From NCBI GenBank assembly GCA_016214655.1, contig JACROC010000004.1, positions 26,084 to 90,083 on the forward strand: 64,000 nucleotides of DNA. The letters are read 5' to 3'. The stretch's first letter is position 1; every line of letters begins with the position of its first letter. The notes beneath the pieces are model-generated. The model was not told the DNA's origin. It ran no database searches and was given only the letters and a program-made list of their open reading frames with translations. Below are positions 3,650-59,992 of the stretch, one piece after another. The stretch comes from Candidatus Harrisonbacteria bacterium (GTDB lineage: Bacteria > Patescibacteriota > Minisyncoccia > UBA6257 > 02-FULL-45-10c). The position numbers and the translations under genes are program-made.

Positions 3650-5350
3650 CTATGGCTGTATGACTCCTCCCTGCTGGCCGACTGTCACATCATCCGGAAG
3701 AGCGGTGGTAATTGGAAGATCGCTGCCCGCCAACTCCCGATTCGTAAAATTATCTAACGCCCGCAGATTAGATTGGCTGATCAGCTGCATATAGTTGCCA
3801 ATGCTTTCACTGGTCGGAATTGCCTCTATCTGGAAAATTGCTTCCAAGGGATTACTCACCACTCCTTGATTGGCTGAAACTTTATCAATCCGCCAGACAA
3901 TCTCATTGGTAGCCAACTCCATAAACGGCACGGAAGAAACATTGCTTTTCGGTTGGCCGACTATTTTAACATTATTACCCAGGGACGCGCGCACTTCAAC
4001 ATTAGAGATGTCAGTCGCAGAATTCTTCAAAACCCAGTGAATGGTAAAATTAGTGGGTTGACCGACTTTCGGCGGCATTGATCCTTTGTTCAAAATTCCC
4101 GATTCCGCATCGCGAAAAAAAGCGCGGGCATCTAAAACAACGTTTCCTAATACTTTAGTTTCTAATTTCTTCTTGCTGATAACCTTGCCGCCAGATTCAA
4201 TTTCAATATCAACCACCAGCAAAAAGTTTTTATCGCTAAACCGCCTGATCGGATAATTATCTTTGGTCTTAATATTAAAATTTATAACTCCGGCGCTCCC
4301 CGGATTAAGAACAGCAAGTGCTGGCGTATTAGCCGGGTTCCAAATCAGCATATTATCGGCAGACCGGAAAAATCCTTGAGTCTGAATAGTGCTTATATCA
4401 TACATTTCTCCCAGTAGCTGAGCGCGGATTACAACATCTCCGAGGGCGGCATCCGTATTATTAATGTAACTGATAGTATAGTTCAGCGTATCGCCGGATT
4501 TAGAAAAATATTCCGTATCACTATTCAAATGAATTGCCATTGATAGAGGGGACGAAGCAATCGTAACCGGCGCTGTCTTGGAATTCACCAAATAACTCTG
4601 CCCGGCGATTCCGGTAGAAAGGTTGGATTTAAATTCAAAAGTATCCCCCTCGCTTCCGATCAGACTGCCCTTAATGGTAAATTTGCCTTCGGAATTTTTC
4701 CGAAGATCGCCGAGCCGCCAAATATTATTCTCGCTGTCCGGCTTCAAAGAGGCACTGGCAAAGGAAAAACTTGGCGGATATTCCAACTTTAATTCTAAAT
4801 TGGAAAAATCGATATCGGAAATATTCCGATACACAACTCCAATCTCAAACGCATCCCCGCTCACCACCCTTTCCGGCGCCGTCATTTCCACATTAACACC
4901 CGAAGACTTCACAAACACCAAAATGGTTTTACTTTTTTCAAATCTGGCACCCAGAGATTGGGTGGCATAATTAATAGTGGCTTTAAATTCTTTGGTGCTT
5001 TTTTCCGGAGAAAAAACTGCCAAACGGTAACTCTCCTGTACCAGACCGCCTATACCAACATTACCGAGAAATTTATTATCAATGGTTTTCTTAGCATCAC
5101 TGCCAAAAAAAGCCGCCCCATCCGGAAGAGCAACGCTCAGCCGCGCGTCTTTCAGAACCGTTCCGGAATTATTACTGAAATTAATTTTCAAATCGAACGG
5201 TTCACCGCTGAATACTTCTGTTGGCGCCTCCAGATCAAAATTCAAGCCACGGATGCTTTGGAAGTGGTAAATATAAAATATACTGACAACGGAAATAACC
5301 GCCAAAATAGCGATGGCTGCCAGCGTTAAATTATTTCTAAACTTTTTCAT
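3650..5350 (-). CDS. hypothetical large membrane-anchored extracytoplasmic protein
   Basis: ORF 3650..5404. The likely start is the internal ATG at 5350 (MKKFRNNLTLAAIAILAVISVV signal-anchor), which abuts the RecO stop. No domain recognised. Confidence 0.45.
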   Translation of the reverse strand: MKKFRNNLTLAAIAILAVISVVSIFYIYHFQSIRGLNFDLEAPTEVFSGEPFDLKINFSNNSGTVLKDARLSVALPDGAAFFGSDAKKTIDNKFLGNVGIGGLVQESYRLAVFSPEKSTKEFKATINYATQSLGARFEKSKTILVFVKSSGVNVEMTAPERVVSGDAFEIGVVYRNISDIDFSNLELKLEYPPSFSFASASLKPDSENNIWRLGDLRKNSEGKFTIKGSLIGSEGDTFEFKSNLSTGIAGQSYLVNSKTAPVTIASSPLSMAIHLNSDTEYFSKSGDTLNYTISYINNTDAALGDVVIRAQLLGEMYDISTIQTQGFFRSADNMLIWNPANTPALAVLNPGSAGVINFNIKTKDNYPIRRFSDKNFLLVVDIEIESGGKVISKKKLETKVLGNVVLDARAFFRDAESGILNKGSMPPKVGQPTNFTIHWVLKNSATDISNVEVRASLGNNVKIVGQPKSNVSSVPFMELATNEIVWRIDKVSANQGVVSNPLEAIFQIEAIPTSESIGNYMQLISQSNLRALDNFTNRELAGSDLPITTALPDDVTVGQQGGVIQP

Positions 5351-33506: not shown

Positions 33507-34021
33507 TCCTAAACTTTATTAAAAAGTTTTAGTTAAAAGTATTTAATTTTAATTAATTGTTGACCACTTAATTAATTTTGCCCCGATAATTTTCTTGAGG
33601 GCCGCGGAAAACAAAATTTATTATTACGTAAAAATAAAAAACCAATCCCTTACAGAATGGACTGATTGTGTATTAAAAAGACATGTAAAATACATTATAG
33701 CAGAACCCAAAATCTTGTCAAGCCCCGTATTCATTCATGACATATTTTCAAATTTTTATTTAATTGCTAAAATCAGACTAGAAAGTAGGCTACTGGAGTT
33801 TAGTTCACGGATTAAACTCGCCGAAATCTCTAAATCCCTATTGCCAGAATCCTATGGATCACGGTTCATAAGAGCGCGCAGAAAGATTTAGCAAAATTCT
33901 TCTACACTACTTGTTGGTTTCCAGTGGAGGTGTCTAATAAATATTGGACTGCTCCCACATAAAATGCAAAAGAGATAGCGAAGCTAAATCTTTGGTGTCC
34001 TGGATGGAAATCAACAACTCG

Positions 34022-34139
34022 CGGCTCACGGTACAATAAGTTCGACGACAACGTGCCGAATCTGTACCTGAACGACGGCGTACCCTCGCTGAACAACAAC
34101 TGGGCTGACAACAGCAATCCGAACTGGGGGTCTGCCTCC
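34022..34139 (+). repeat. DGR template repeat (TR)
   Basis: A GC-rich segment of about 118 nt aligns with the reverse complement of 35812..35929. In my hand alignment, every mismatch falls at a TR adenine. Confidence 0.75.
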
Positions 34140-34185
34140 GCGTGGTAGCTTTTAAGAAAGAAAAGGTGCCTTGAGAGGCGCTTTT

Positions 34186-34578
34186 TCATTTTTCCGAAAC
34201 CGATTTCAGCCAGCCACCGAGCATTCTTCCGATTTCCTGCAGCAGCGATTGGAGCCGGACATATTTTTTCGCATCAATAATTTTTATTTCCTTCAAAAGC
34301 CTCACTAATATTTTCAAAGTATCAAACTTAGAACTAGCCTTCTGAAGAGCAACGTATTTGCCGGACTTGTTAATGCCGGCCGCAAAAAGAATCAGCTCTA
34401 AAAATTCTAAGGCGGCATCTTCACATCTTTTACCAAGAGTATAGCGATCTTTCTTTGGAAAAAGTTCTGCATAGGAATAAAATAACTTATAAAAATCGTA
34501 AATTTTCTGTACGATAGGAGTATCCAGATGCAATCCCTCTTCTTGAATATGAAAATTGTCCATAATATTTTTGATCAA
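34186..34578 (-). CDS. Avd-like four-helix-bundle accessory protein (23S rRNA-intervening-sequence protein family)
   Basis: About 130 aa, helical, similar to four-helix-bundle proteins found beside DGR reverse transcriptases. It starts at TTG 34578 or ATG 34563. It is divergent from and slightly overlaps the RT gene. Confidence 0.55.
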   Translation of the reverse strand: MIKNIMDNFHIQEEGLHLDTPIVQKIYDFYKLFYSYAELFPKKDRYTLGKRCEDAALEFLELILFAAGINKSGKYVALQKASSKFDTLKILVRLLKEIKIIDAKKYVRLQSLLQEIGRMLGGWLKSVSEK

Positions 34579-35592
34579 ATTATTTCTTTAGAAAACCTTT
34601 TTCACGCCTGGGATATATTTAAAGTCGGCAAAAGAAGCAAGGCCGATGTCCAGGAATTTGAAAGAAATCTTGAAGATAATATTTTTGCGCTGCATAAAGA
34701 ATTAGAAGATAAAACTTATATTCATAGAGGCTATACCTCTTTTTACATAACCGATCCCAAAGTCCGCCATATTCATAAAGCCCTGGTAAGAGATCGCGTG
34801 ATCCACCACGCTCTCTTTAATGTGCTCTATCCGATTTTTGATAAGACCTTTATCTCTGAATCGTATTCCTGCCGTATCAATAAAGGTACTCATAAAGCAG
34901 TGGATCGCTTCCAAATATATTCGCAAAAAGTAACTAAAAATCACACTAAAAAATGTTTTGTCTTGAAATGCGATATTCAAAAGTTTTTTGCGAGCATTGA
35001 TCATGCTATTTTAAAAACGTTTATAGAAAATAAAATTAAAGATAAAAACGTCTTATGGCTTATAAATATAATTATTGATAGTTTTCACTCAGAAGTAGGG
35101 CTGAATAAAGGCGCGCCAATTGGCAATTTAACTTCTCAATTATTTGCCAATATCTATCTCACTGAACTTGATCAATTTATAAAACAAAACTTAAAAATCC
35201 CTTACTACATTCGATACACGGATGACTTTGTTATCTTGAGTGAAAGTAAAGAATTTTTAATAAAGCTTATCCCAATAATTGAAAAATTCCTGAAATCCAA
35301 CTTAAAACTCACTTTGCACCCCAATAAAATCAGTATCAGGCCATATCATCAGGGAATTGATTTCTTGGGTTACGTACTGTTTCCCCATCATCGCACTCCA
35401 AGGACTCGCACCCGAAGGAGAATCTTTAATAAATTGGAATCTAATATAGCGCTTTGTAAAAATGAGAAGATTCCTATCACCACCCTTGATAATTCTTTGC
35501 AATCTTACTTTGGGTTTTTGAAGCACGCGAATTCCTACAAACTAACGCAAAAATTAAAAAACCAGATTTGGTTCTGGCTGCAAGAAAAATAA
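34528..35592 (+). CDS. diversity-generating retroelement reverse transcriptase
   Basis: 354 aa. RT motifs are present, including YIRYTDDFVIL (YxDD). The DGR-specific motif 4 reads IGNLTSQLF (IGxxxSQ, in place of the group II QGxxxSP). The N-terminus is typical of DGR RTs. Confidence 0.85.
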   Translation: MQSLFLNMKIVHNIFDQIISLENLFHAWDIFKVGKRSKADVQEFERNLEDNIFALHKELEDKTYIHRGYTSFYITDPKVRHIHKALVRDRVIHHALFNVLYPIFDKTFISESYSCRINKGTHKAVDRFQIYSQKVTKNHTKKCFVLKCDIQKFFASIDHAILKTFIENKIKDKNVLWLINIIIDSFHSEVGLNKGAPIGNLTSQLFANIYLTELDQFIKQNLKIPYYIRYTDDFVILSESKEFLIKLIPIIEKFLKSNLKLTLHPNKISIRPYHQGIDFLGYVLFPHHRTPRTRTRRRIFNKLESNIALCKNEKIPITTLDNSLQSYFGFLKHANSYKLTQKLKNQIWFWLQEK

Positions 35593-35626
35593 ATACCCGA
35601 CCTTTTTATTGCCTAATAAAAATTTT

Positions 35627-35665
35627 GGATGGATGGATGGATGGATGGATGGATGGATGGATGGA
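35627..35665. repeat. (GGAT)n tetranucleotide microsatellite, about 9-10 units
   Basis: Perfect GGATGGATGG... run lying between the convergent RT and target genes. Confidence 0.9.
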
Positions 35666-35807
35666 AACGGAAACCGCTTTTCATTTTATTATTTTAACTT
35701 ATTTTTTATAAAAAAAGAATGGGGCGTCTCGCATGTCGCAAAACGCCCCGATGTCCAAGGTCCAAGTACCAAGGCACAAGTGCCAAGATACAAAGACCGA
35801 AGACCTA

Positions 35808-36530
35808 CTACACTACCGCCTCGGAGGCAGACCCCCAGCCCGGAAGCCTGACGCCAGCCCAGCGGCCGTCCAGCGAGGGCACGCCGTCGCGCAGGTACAG
35901 ACCCGGCACGCTGTCGCCGAACCTACCGCACCGCGAGCCGGAAAGATCAACGTAGTGATCCTTCAGAAGGTCAGGGTTTTCGCGATATAGCGCGAGTCCC
36001 TTGACCGTCATCAGACCTCTCCGGTTGTTCCTTCCGAACTCCTCAATGGCGCTGTTCGGCGACCAGTTCAGCATCTTCTTGCCGTTCTCCACTCCGTAGA
36101 TCCAGCCCCATCGGCCTTGCGGCTTCGGGTGCAGATCCTCGTGATAGCTGAGGTCCAGGTAGTTCTTGATGCCAAGCAACTGGCACTGCCTGTCGATCGG
36201 CGTCTCGTAATCCACCAGGAGCGCCAGGCCAAGCTTCAGCTTGGCCTCATCCGGGAGCGAAATATCCTTCTCGTCGAAGGCATAGCCCCGCGCCAGGAGA
36301 TGCTCCACCTGGAACTGCCGGACTTTTTCAGGTTCGCTCTGGAGCTTTGCCGAAAGCTTCTTGATAGAAGCCACGATGTCGGCTTGGAACTCGCCGCCTT
36401 TGCCAATAAGTTGCTGGAGCCCGTCCTTGTCGAGACCGGCTTCCTTACGCGCTTTCTCGGCAGCGTCCTCAACGAACCGCTTGTACTGCTTCTCCTGTCC
36501 GGATGTGATCGATGTTTTCATCGTCATCAT
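35808..36530 (-). CDS. DGR target protein with a C-terminal variable region
   Basis: 240 aa. The gene is GC-rich, in contrast to the flanking sequence. The last ~40 codons (...SRCGRFGDSVPGLYLRDGVPSLDGRWAGVRLPGWGSASEAVV) are encoded by the VR. Confidence 0.7.
   Translation of the reverse strand: MMTMKTSITSGQEKQYKRFVEDAAEKARKEAGLDKDGLQQLIGKGGEFQADIVASIKKLSAKLQSEPEKVRQFQVEHLLARGYAFDEKDISLPDEAKLKLGLALLVDYETPIDRQCQLLGIKNYLDLSYHEDLHPKPQGRWGWIYGVENGKKMLNWSPNSAIEEFGRNNRRGLMTVKGLALYRENPDLLKDHYVDLSGSRCGRFGDSVPGLYLRDGVPSLDGRWAGVRLPGWGSASEAVV
35812..35929 (-). repeat. DGR variable repeat (VR)
   Basis: It matches the TR with substitutions only at TR adenines. Most are A to G, some A to C or A to T. A shared GC-rich 3' element, CTGGGGGTCTGCCTCC, is present in both. 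Confidence 0.75.
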
Positions 36531-36656: not shown

Positions 36657-37787
36657 TTATTTTCCGAATAAATCTACATATTCGTGCAACTCAAAAGACC
36701 GGTTGCGCGAGAAGCCGGTTTTTTCTTTTAGCACCCCTTTCTGCTCAAACTCATTTACGAGACGAGTTGCCGTTACGAATGCAACTCCGAGTTTTTCGGC
36801 AATCTGGTTTATATTCATAATCGGCTGGGAAAAGAGCCTGAGCAATAATTGCTGACCCAATTCGGCGCGACGCCCCATAGCAACAATTTTTCTTTCGTAA
36901 CGCTGTCGGAGAATGATAATTTTTTCAAATGTTTCTTTTCCTTTTGTTGCCGTTTCAATGACGCCCGATAAGAAGAACTTGATCCATTGTTCGATATTGT
37001 CCGAAGCTCGAACCACCATAAGCGAATCGTAATATGCCCCCTTATTTCTTTCAAAGAAATCTGAAAGATATAAAGTCGGTTTTTGAAGCACGCCTGCTTC
37101 CACCAGTTGCAGGGTGATAAGTAAGCGTCCAACCCTACCATTGCCGTCAAGAAATGGGTGGATAGTTTCAAATTGATAATGACTCATCGCCATCTTAATC
37201 AAAAGCGGAATATCAAGTATTTTATTGTGCCAGAACTTTTCAAGATCGGAAAGCAGCTCTGACACTTCGCTTGGATGCGGCGGGATGAAGAACGCGTCTT
37301 TCAAACTTGAACCGCCAATCCAATTCTGGCTTACCCGTATTTCTCCCGGAGTTTTATATTCGCCACGGACACTTGTAAGCAACATTTTATGCGCACCCCT
37401 TAATAAACGCATCGAGAGGGGCAAGCTCTGAAGTTCTTTGATTGCATGATTTATAGCCGCAATATAATTTTGCACCTCTTTCCAATCATCGCGTCTTTCC
37501 GGATTTACGTCCTCTCTCCGCAGAAGCACCTCGTCAATTCCCGTTTTAGTTCCTTCAATGCGGCTGGAAGTCGTTGCTTCTTTTGCTATGTGCATTTTAA
37601 TGAAATAGTCGACATCCGGCACAAGCGTCGAATAAGCATTCAGTTCGCCCAAAAGCCGCATTGCTTCGCTTAAAAGTAAATTAATCTTGGCATCTTGCCA
37701 CTTAAAAGGCTTGTTGATTGCAGATGGGCTGAAGCTCTTGTATTCCAACTGTTGTTTATACGCACCCGCCTTAAATGATTGTTCCAT
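36657..37787 (-). CDS. Fic family protein (Fic/Doc, probable AMPylase) with C-terminal winged helix
   Basis: 376 aa. The canonical Fic motif [14 protein letters not shown] (HPFx[DE]GNGRxxR) is present. Confidence 0.8.
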
Positions 37788-40842: not shown

Positions 40843-40963
40843 CCCTAGCAAATCCTACTTTCTCGCCAACTCGAAGTCGGTAATATCATCGGAGATATAG
40901 GCTTTCACTTCCGAGTTCGGAATGGGATCGGGTGGGACACCTATAGCTAAATCACTAGGAGAC
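40843..40963 (-). rRNA. rrf: 5S ribosomal RNA
   Basis: The reverse complement contains GTCCCACCCGATCCCATTCCGAACTCGGAAGTGAAA, matching the 5S consensus. It lies about 60 nt downstream of the 23S 3' end. Confidence 0.8.
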
Positions 40964-41023
40964 AAAATAATACACGGATTTTAAAAAAATGTAATTAAGA
41001 ATGAATACTAACTTAAGAGGTCA

Positions 41024-44372
<3,349 letters not shown>

Positions 44373-59443: not shown

Positions 59444-59992
59444 TTACTCTGGCGAAACCCAGACTTCACGTTTTGCGTCCCAATAATTGCCATCTGGCGA
59501 AACCCAGACTTCACGTTTTGCGTCCCAATAATTGCCATCTGGCGAAACCCAGACTTCACGTTTTGCGTCCCAATAATTGCCGCTTTGATCTATCCACACA
59601 CTTCGTTTATCATCCCAGACCGAATCCCCTTGATCAGTTTGCGCGAATGCATACTGTATGCCCAAAAGAGTCAAAAAATCATTTTTAACATCTAGAAACG
59701 CGCCGGGAGTTTTAAGAATTTTTTGATTAGACGAAGGAGCTGATTTAGGACTAGAAGAAGGTGCAGAAATGGGAGCTGATTTAGGACTAGAAGAAGGTGC
59801 AGAAATGGGAGCTGATTTAGGACTAGAAGAAGGTGCAGAAATGGGAGCTGATTTAGGAGGTGCCACTGAATTTATTAATTTTGATTTCTGCCACCAATAA
59901 ACTCCACCACCCAGTATGATTCCTATAAACATTAAAATAATAATGGTAGCTATTGGCGCTAAACTATTTTTAAACTTTAAGCCACTAAACAT
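59444..59992 (-). CDS. membrane-anchored tandem-repeat protein
   Basis: 182 aa. An N-terminal TM segment is followed by SAPISAPSSSPK x3 and then WVSPDGNYWDAKREV x3. The protein is built from two DNA tandem repeats. An alternative +strand ORF (59396..59695) overlaps it and looks less coherent. Confidence 0.45.
   Translation of the reverse strand: MFSGLKFKNSLAPIATIIILMFIGIILGGGVYWWQKSKLINSVAPPKSAPISAPSSSPKSAPISAPSSSPKSAPISAPSSSPKSAPSSNQKILKTPGAFLDVKNDFLTLLGIQYAFAQTDQGDSVWDDKRSVWIDQSGNYWDAKREVWVSPDGNYWDAKREVWVSPDGNYWDAKREVWVSPE
59450..59584. repeat. 45-bp direct tandem repeat x3
   Basis: The unit TGGCGAAACCCAGACTTCACGTTTTGCGTCCCAATAATTGCCATC occurs three times in a row. The third copy is slightly diverged. 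Confidence 0.85.
59737..59860. repeat. 36-bp direct tandem repeat x3 plus a partial copy
   Basis: The unit GAGCTGATTTAGGACTAGAAGAAGGTGCAGAAATGG occurs three times in a row. Confidence 0.85.

Follow-up and report, generated by a model that had tools for sequence, protein, structure and literature searches.

A very probable diversity-generating retroelement of a kind common in candidate-phyla-radiation bacteria, with a structured RNA domain abutting its template repeat

A locus in a Candidatus Harrisonbacteria MAG, found within the 64-kb stretch of DNA analysed here (hereafter the window), is very probably a chromosomal diversity-generating retroelement (DGR) of the CPR/Patescibacteria clade. 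The DGR is complete but ordinary, of a kind common in candidate-phyla-radiation (CPR) bacteria, and the same cassette with adenine-biased pairs of template repeat (TR) and variable repeat (VR) was found in 64 of the 83 DGR loci scanned (relatives together with this window). The core of the element comprises the following features.

34022..34140, + strand: TR, with 31 adenines and 11 AAY codons.
34124..34140, + strand: IMH*-like GC-rich 3' end of the TR, CTGGGGGTCTGCCTCCG, the same as the VR end, with flanks that diverge beyond it.
34186..34563, − strand: avd (accessory variability determinant), 125 aa, bAvd PF22296, inverted relative to the TR and the RT.
34549..35592, + strand: DGR reverse transcriptase (RT), 347 aa, RVT_1 at 7.8e-23.
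35822..35940, − strand: VR, target codons 197-237, with its IMH-like end at 35822-35838.
35808..36530, − strand: target gene, 240 aa, with the VR at the C-terminus.

The TR and the VR form an inverted repeat of 119 nt with 79% identity and 25 mismatches, 24 of which fall on TR adenines (19 A>G, 3 A>C and 2 A>T). A sequence-only reading of the locus had placed the two repeats at 34022-34139 and 35812-35929; the pair is real, but the VR coordinates were about 10 nt off, a register in which the repeats cannot be aligned. The adenine bias reported there holds as well, although the counts do not, since 24 of 31 TR adenines are substituted in the VR and not about 23 of about 27. The changes are indeed mostly A to G (19 of the 24). 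One position contradicts the assertion that no non-adenine site differs: C34115 of the TR corresponds to G at VR 35847, in the third position of codon 228, which could be an ordinary point mutation acquired since the last homing event. The VR thus matches the TR at 87 of 88 non-A positions, compared with 39 of 88 for the best other site in the 64-kb window, and no further TR copy, pointing to a second VR or target, was found within the window. The common GC-rich IMH-like end described earlier was recovered: the 17 nt of CTGGGGGTCTGCCTCCG are identical between TR 34124-34140 and VR 35838-35822 and the sequences diverge afterwards, and by these sequence criteria the shared end is probably an IMH/IMH*-type element. 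The TR adenines are distributed over codon positions 1, 2 and 3 as 12, 17 and 2, respectively, i.e., 29 lie in positions 1 or 2, and a single TR codon is able to mutate to stop. The VR itself, at the 3' end of the target ORF, is in frame and free of stops, with the variable codons spanning 201-231.

A gene fragment simply duplicated in inverted orientation, with no involvement of reverse transcription, would explain that a repeat exists and nothing beyond that. This reading is already refuted by the mismatch spectrum, in which 24 of 25 mismatches are at adenines of one copy and one strand (binomial P of at least 24 of 25 on A = 1.8e-13, with 31 A in 119 nt), and the repeat is moreover flanked by a DGR-type RT and Avd; we assign this explanation a negligible probability.

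The RT, whose start codon was picked from an alignment with relatives, has its closest PDB structure in 8ub7, the Bordetella phage DGR RT (E 3e-43). When the two are aligned, IGNLTSQLFAN faces IGSLTSQLFAN and YTDD faces YMDD; the IGxxxSQ motif noted earlier is accordingly there, the check for catalytic YxDD residues came out positive, and the combination of YxDD with [I/L/V]GxxxSQ places the RT, as judged from its motifs, in the DGR clade. Its identity to the RTs of 80 CPR loci ranges from 51 to 62%. [quoted passage not shown] The RT whose closest structure is 8ub7, the PF22296 match and the adenine-specific TR/VR pair together support the earlier claim that the DGR is complete.

The arrangement TR-(avd)-RT with an inverted avd is architecture B3, which accounts for 90% of CPR DGRs (Wu et al. 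2018, PMC5758913). At the present locus the order is TR, inverted avd and RT, with the TR and the RT on the same strand, and this TR-(avd)-RT core recurs in about 60 related CPR loci. Since the layout is the published B3 and is shared by these loci, the arrangement is not unusual, contrary to how it had been described; what can be retained of that description is the target downstream of and convergent with the RT, a minority variant seen in 4 of 63 relatives (L031, L039, L042 and L055). In most CPR relatives the target shares the strand of the TR and precedes it by about 480 nt, whereas here it is downstream of the RT on the opposite strand. DGR clade 2 is restricted to CPR and has targets without membrane or known domains (Roux et al. 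2021, PMC8144416). The locus resembles CPR DGRs in being chromosomal, in its CPR host and in its small target, which carries the VR at the C-terminus and lacks a membrane domain or a known N-terminal domain. Neither a signal peptide nor a hydrophobic segment can be seen in the target, an absence that is usual for CPR DGR targets.

Compared with the DGR of Bordetella phage BPP-1, whose order is mtd-avd-TR-brt, the locus shares the signature of adenine-specific TR-to-VR transfer, a bRT homologue (3e-43), Avd, a GC-rich IMH-like element and a CLec-fold target. [quoted passage not shown] In addition, the host is a cell and not a phage, and the target is not a tail fibre.

Fold prediction of the target C-terminus, the check proposed with the sequence-only reading, gave a confident structure model in which the C-terminal half adopts a C-type-lectin (CLec) fold. 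The VR had been assigned to about 40 C-terminal residues of the 240-aa protein and indeed occupies residues 197-237, which the model embeds in the CLec fold, consistent with a DGR variable protein. Among homologous targets, variation occurs exactly at the positions coded by TR adenines, and the scaffold residues are fixed. Pfam DUF5701 (PF18959) matches the target with 38.5 bits (gathering threshold 27.4), a partial match that covers target residues 142-217 and profile positions 90-170 of 206. The N-terminal 83 aa searched alone returned no match, Foldseek of the target gave only weak lectin-domain matches against the PDB and nothing significant against viral structures, and a literature search on DUF5701 found no papers. 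The domain differs from Treponema denticola TvpA and the FGE-type CLec proteins, since it has no FGE-sulfatase Pfam match and is placed by Pfam in DUF5701. The FGE-type VR pattern is GG.W...R.A.R...GFR, from which the VR motif of the target, D.SGSR...F.D.VP.L.L..G.PSL...WA......WGSAS, is different. Between the RT and the target are three further features.

35626..35665, no strand: (GGAT)10 microsatellite, in the interval from the RT stop to the target terminator.
35721..35749, − strand: intrinsic terminator of the target gene, with a T run after a stem of 13 bp.
35750..35807, − strand: conserved 3' untranslated stretch in which CTTGG recurs, bounded by the target stop and the terminator.

The terminator stem is kept in L008 with a different inner sequence. 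The 3' untranslated stretch, which has a weak 7/14-nt periodicity (TRF), is almost unchanged in L008 and L009, and its conservation exceeds that of the VR. The GGAT repeat, correctly located between the RT and the target by the earlier reading, varies in copy number among close relatives (about 3 in L009, at least 3 in L010).

The base composition of the target gene stands out, with a GC of 0.59 versus 0.42 for the contig, a sharp jump at both gene ends, and a GC3 of 0.77 versus 0.35-0.45 for every other gene tested in the window. Such a jump and such a GC3 would also be produced by an assembly or binning chimera, in which the GC-rich target was joined to a low-GC CPR contig and the TR and the VR would hence not come from one genome. 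However, the TR lies in the low-GC part and still agrees with the VR at all but one of the 88 non-A positions, a GC-rich target beside a low-GC RT and avd is found in 56 of 59 independent loci from other assemblies, and the 3' flank of the target, including the RT 3' end, is co-linear in L009. A chimera is thus extremely improbable. Target genes of this CPR DGR clade are GC-rich islands. Adenine avoidance was considered as the cause of the GC excess and dismissed, since on the coding strand the depletion of T equals or exceeds that of A. Some family members without an RT nearby (L001 and L005) have ordinary GC. The GC3 excess of the target genes might record adenine-directed mutagenesis leaking beyond the VR, and not a foreign origin.

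A structured RNA lies immediately 5' of the TR and had been overlooked by the sequence-only reading. Its elements, together with a hairpin on the other side of the TR, are as follows.

33898..34026, + strand: structured RNA domain, a three-helix junction abutting the TR 5' end, identified by covariance model and covariation.
33911-33922 with 34006-34017: helix P1 of the RNA domain.
33926-33936 with 33945-33955: helix P2 of the RNA domain.
33969-33973 with 33989-33993: helix P3 of the RNA domain, with an inner hairpin at 33976-33986.
34160..34187, no strand: 12-bp hairpin with runs of A and T on its sides, situated 20 nt past the TR and extending into the avd stop codon.

When a covariance model was trained on 42 related loci, with the window left out, its single match in the window fell on the RNA domain (93.9 bits, E 1.7e-22; the runner-up reached 13 bits). 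Over 44 loci, 95.5% of the cells were paired, compared with 39-54% when the partners were slid, and none of 500 shuffles reached the observed value. The domain was found in 72 of 87 related or homolog loci searched and presumably forms the 5' portion of the DGR RNA. The Rfam RT-16 model (RF03019) aligns over its full length to 33877-34023, ending at the TR start, with 37.2 bits, below the gathering score of 50 (E 5e-4 to 3e-3). Both are RT-associated structured RNAs that combine a 5' hairpin with two hairpins inside a long-range helix, but RT-16 misses 29 related loci (none of 20 matched at the gathering score and none of 9 at E <= 1), whereas the model built here matches 72 of 87; given this absence from relatives, the domain was not filed under RT-16. 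RT-16 has been given no function, and only RT-10 has been linked to a DGR (Weinberg et al. 2017, PMC5737381).

The hairpin at 34160-34187 is a candidate bidirectional terminator that would end both the TR RNA and avd, and it may also correspond to the stem-loop that Avd binds in the Bordetella DGR RNA. In 58 of 63 loci a hairpin at least as strong as -7 kcal/mol, its sequence differing between loci, lies no more than about 25 nt from the TR end. We tentatively consider, as a possibility on the doubtful side, that in the CPR DGR clade the scaffold recruiting RT-Avd, and perhaps the priming nucleotide, lies 5' and not 3' of the TR, i.e., that the DGR RNA is a permuted version of that of Bordetella because the inverted avd occupies the place of the spacer. 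In such a permuted RNA, a long-range duplex would enclose both the three-helix junction and the TR. A comparison of duplex energies did reveal a helix that brackets the TR in relatives, with -11.2 kcal/mol for cognate and -7.4 kcal/mol for non-cognate pairings, whereas a search for it by column pairs between two MAFFT alignments yielded no stretch of 4 or more columns with 80% pairing. In the window this duplex is weak or shifted, with -4.7 kcal/mol at the homologous place and an alternative pairing of 33870-33879 with 34139-34153 at -10.1 kcal/mol.

How the element would work can be sketched from the Bordetella phage paradigm, from which we infer transcription, RT-Avd copying, VR replacement and codon re-randomisation. 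A + strand non-coding RNA of about 300 nt (about 33898 to 34190) would run from the 5' domain through the TR to the hairpin, with a short linker ahead of the hairpin; RT-Avd would bind this DGR RNA and copy the TR into cDNA, misincorporating opposite adenines. The VR, which lies 1.7 kb away on the opposite strand, would then be replaced by the cDNA as far as a 3' boundary defined by the IMH-like end. This would re-randomise about 20 codons (residues 201-231) whose products lie on the ligand-binding face of the lectin fold, giving up to about 1e17 protein variants.

The differences between the TR and the VR could instead be the frozen record of the last homing event of a fossil DGR, active in the past and with a VR that is now fixed. 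The non-A mismatch at TR 34115 fits such a history, as does the absence of VR variants from the public collections scanned: a 68-nt TR pattern with N at adenines had no match in JGI metagenomes, and a 30-nt TR pattern had none in GTDB species genomes. (Two metagenome matches of the 30-nt pattern are due to chance and lie in high-GC alpha/beta-hydrolase genes.) The members L001 and L005, in loci without an RT nearby and with ordinary GC, show that loss of the DGR does happen in the target family. Nevertheless, the RT and avd ORFs are full length with intact catalytic motifs, all of the AAY codons are kept in the TR, the VR has stayed in frame and stop-free, and a model from other loci recognises the 5' RNA domain with 93.9 bits. 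In addition, the single non-A difference is within the adenine-bias range of related pairs, 0.75-1.0. We consider a fossil unlikely.

As a DGR, the locus is one more example of a well-described class, and on that account alone it changes little. The RNA domain, the link to DUF5701 and the GC3 excess would matter more than the DGR itself, if they are confirmed. The uncharacterised DUF5701 would then be tied to the CLec fold and to DGR targeting, and the target-specific GC3 excess, a measurable anomaly, may bear on how DGR targets evolve or move. The RNA domain, if confirmed, would provide a covariation-defined 5' domain for the DGR RNA of the most DGR-rich bacterial group.

The window carries a real, complete diversity-generating retroelement (DGR) of a known and common kind, with a template repeat (TR), a variable repeat (VR), avd, a reverse transcriptase (RT) and a target gene, and these parts are conserved across its relatives:

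33898-34026, + strand: three-helix RNA domain adjoining the 5' end of the TR (covariance-model match)
34022-34140, + strand: TR, one arm of a 119-nt inverted repeat
34160-34187: hairpin 3' of the TR, overlapping the avd stop
34186-34563, - strand: avd (Pfam bAvd, 1.2e-21)
34549-35592, + strand: RT (RVT_1 match)
35808-36530, - strand: target gene (100% identical to HZB99_01275)
35822-35940, - strand: VR, the other arm of the 119-nt inverted repeat

In an inverted-repeat search, the TR and VR arms (119 nt each, 79% complementary) were the sole long inverted repeat of the region, with TR position p pairing with VR position 69962-p. They differ at 25 positions, 24 of them at adenines of the TR (19 A>G, 3 A>C and 2 A>T); with 31 adenines in 119 nt, chance would place 24 or more of the 25 mismatches on A with a probability of 1.8e-13. 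The adenine-specific pair recognized in the sequence-only reading therefore stands, but its VR coordinates (35812-35929) were about 10 nt off, because the TR and that interval do not align in that register. Its tally of 23 changed adenines out of 27 was slightly wrong, the actual figure being 24 of 31, and its claim of no mismatch outside adenines missed one, C34115 against G at VR 35847. This single non-A mismatch is what speaks for a fossil DGR that is no longer active; however, every part of the element is intact, and we consider a fossil unlikely. The two repeats share their final 17 nt (CTGGGGGTCTGCCTCCG) without change and their flanks diverge beyond, a shared 3' end that fits the IMH/IMH* pattern, as in the Bordetella phage element (PMC5758913). 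No second VR was found in the window, where the best other site matched 39 of 88 non-A positions, versus 87 of 88 for the VR.

The VR spans codons 197-237 of the target, and the TR adenines are distributed over codon positions 1, 2 and 3 as 12, 17 and 2. Eleven TR codons are AAY, and a single codon of the whole repeat is able to mutate to a stop; the protein diversity accessible via the VR is about 1e17. In the target-family alignment, the VR scaffold residues are fixed and the positions coded by TR adenines are variable. The target is 100% identical to HZB99_01275, annotated at NCBI as a hypothetical protein from Candidatus Harrisonbacteria, which places the window in a CPR genome; it scores above the Pfam threshold for DUF5701 and belongs to a large family, since the family profile matches 2093 cluster representatives at E <= 1e-3. 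Fold prediction, proposed in the sequence-only reading, gave a confident AlphaFold2 model (pLDDT 94.3, from a 47-sequence alignment) with four N-terminal helices followed by an alpha/beta domain, but the support obtained for it with Foldseek was weak.

Target residues 1-65 (window 36334-36530; SITSGQEKQYKRFVEDAAEKA...DIVASI) share ~75% identity with the N-terminal part of a subfamily of 290-aa proteins, which beyond this shared part is only ~30% identical to the target (comparison with the homologous proteins P0022-P0047), and three other close homologues (P0003, P0004 and P0015) have signal-peptide-like N-termini. This suggests N-terminal domain shuffling in the target family. Between the target stop codon and the terminator lie ~58 nt with repeated CTTGG (35750-35807, - strand). 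The related loci L008 and L009 have this stretch in near-identical form, and its conservation exceeds that of the coding VR; it may act as a regulatory 3' UTR or belong to the homing target site. Beyond the RT stop lies a (GGAT)n tract (35626-35665) that close relatives also have. It counts 10 copies in the window, ~3 in L009 (about 1040-1055) and 3 or more in L010 (3340-3360), where it lies at the contig end; the variation resembles slippage in a tract that was inherited. The gene directly upstream of the target, in the same orientation and 126 nt away, is a Fic/DOC family gene (36657-37787, - strand) with Fic_N and a C-terminal HTH.

The closest solved relative of the RT is the Bordetella phage DGR RT (bRT; 8ub7, E 3e-43), with whose matching motifs IGNLTSQLFAN and YTDD line up. 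The start codons of avd and the RT lie head-to-head, overlapping by 15 nt at 34549-34563 (ATGAAAATTGTCCAT). Of the 34 relatives in which avd has just one candidate start, 29 have the two starts -5 to +2 nt from abutting; the outliers extend from a gap of 32 nt to an overlap of 57 nt. The promoter of each gene must therefore sit within the other gene, a placement that allows mutual antisense interference.

RNA structure around the TR had been overlooked in the sequence-only reading. An Rfam search matched RT-16 (RF03019) over its full length but below threshold, and the match (33877-34023) stops where the TR starts; among the RT-associated motifs RT-1 to RT-19 of Weinberg et al., RT-10 alone was tied to DGRs (PMC5737381). 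We aligned the 165 nt that precede the TR in 44 loci; in the consensus, a long-range helix of 12 bp (P1) encloses the arms P2 and P3. In this alignment 95.5% of cells were paired, versus 39-54% with the partners slid, and 386 cells were changed on both sides, versus 44-90; none of 500 shuffles reached the observed values. An independent covariance model, built without the window, matched the window once, at 33898-34026 (93.9 bits, E 1.7e-22; runner-up 13 bits). It also matched 72 of 87 loci, which comprised 82 DGR loci with an RT and five target-homolog contigs, and the match ended just 5' of the TR wherever a TR was mapped. The RT-16 model found no match in the 29 relatives searched with it; we therefore treat the domain as weakly related to RT-16 and not as a member.

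In the relatives, the stretch immediately before P1 forms a duplex with the stretch immediately after the TR, so enclosing both the RNA domain and the TR (cognate mean -11.2 versus non-cognate -7.4 kcal/mol). The window has a weak duplex at the homologous place, and it may be shifted to 33870-33879 with 34139-34153. Of 63 loci, 58 have a strong hairpin after the TR, and that of the window (34160-34187) looks like a bidirectional terminator. According to Handa et al., the Bordetella DGR RNA needs 20 nt before the TR and 140 nt after it, and a stem-loop that binds Avd comes right after the TR; their survey of other DGRs covered just 40 nt upstream of the TR and would therefore have missed the 5' domain. 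We infer that a + strand RNA of ~300 nt (5' domain, TR, linker and hairpin) would be bound by RT-Avd and that its TR would be reverse-transcribed, with wrong bases placed opposite adenines; the resulting cDNA would then replace the VR on the other strand, 1.7 kb away, bounded by the IMH-like end.

The RT-based scan, using one genome per species, confirmed 359 relatives, of which 80 were kept; all 80 are metagenome-assembled contigs, most labelled as CPR (Patescibacteria-type) bacteria. Of the 83 DGR loci examined (L003, L004, L011-L090 and the window), 64 gave adenine-biased TR/VR pairs, the TR lying on the RT strand in all but one of these 64 and usually ~400-530 nt upstream of the RT start. 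The cassettes of L003 (a Patescibacteria contig) and L004 (a Howlettbacteria contig) read target(+), TR(+), avd(-), RT(+), with adenine-specific TR/VR pairs and target-family members. The arrangement described as unusual in the sequence-only reading is the norm for CPR; only the target position, convergent with and downstream of the RT, is less common, and it recurs in L031, L039, L042 and L055. CPR DGRs fall in clade 2 of Roux et al., who found neither transmembrane nor known domains in the targets and predicted that some are C-Lec variants not yet recognised as such (PMC8144416); the window target agrees with both statements. Just downstream of the RT in L024, a related CPR locus, a group I intron match (4154-4399, - strand; 58.5 bits) exceeds the gathering score.

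Elsewhere in the window, the 23S rRNA (41013-44351, - strand) measures 3339 nt against a 2925-position model and thus holds ~400 nt of insertions; the 5S rRNA is at 40843-40959. The ORF at 59444-59992 (- strand) holds two perfect tandem repeats (both 100% identity), a 45-nt unit x3 (59448-59581) and a 36-nt unit x3.4 (59736-59858).

Target genes are GC-rich. Across 59 loci (drawn from the window, L003, L004 and L008-L090), mean target GC with the VR excluded is 0.534, whereas the RT has 0.385 and avd 0.380 (Wilcoxon P 5e-11); the target exceeds the RT in 56 of 59, and target GC3 is 0.647 versus 0.416. In the window, GC3 is 0.77 for the target (35808-36530) and 0.35-0.45 for the other genes tested (rpoB, rpoC, Fic, RT and others). 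The GC jump at the target gene is what an assembly chimera joining a GC-rich target to a low-GC contig would produce; however, the TR sits in the low-GC flank, the same contrast is seen in 56 of 59 other loci and the layout in L009 is co-linear, and for these reasons we exclude a chimera as exceedingly improbable. Simple adenine avoidance as the cause of the GC excess was ruled out, because T is depleted as well as A. Family members without a nearby RT (L001 and L005) have ordinary GC. Wu et al. discuss GC for the whole DGR versus its host and nothing finer (PMC5758913). Two features of this DGR are worth following: its structured RNA domain 5' of the TR and the GC-rich targets.
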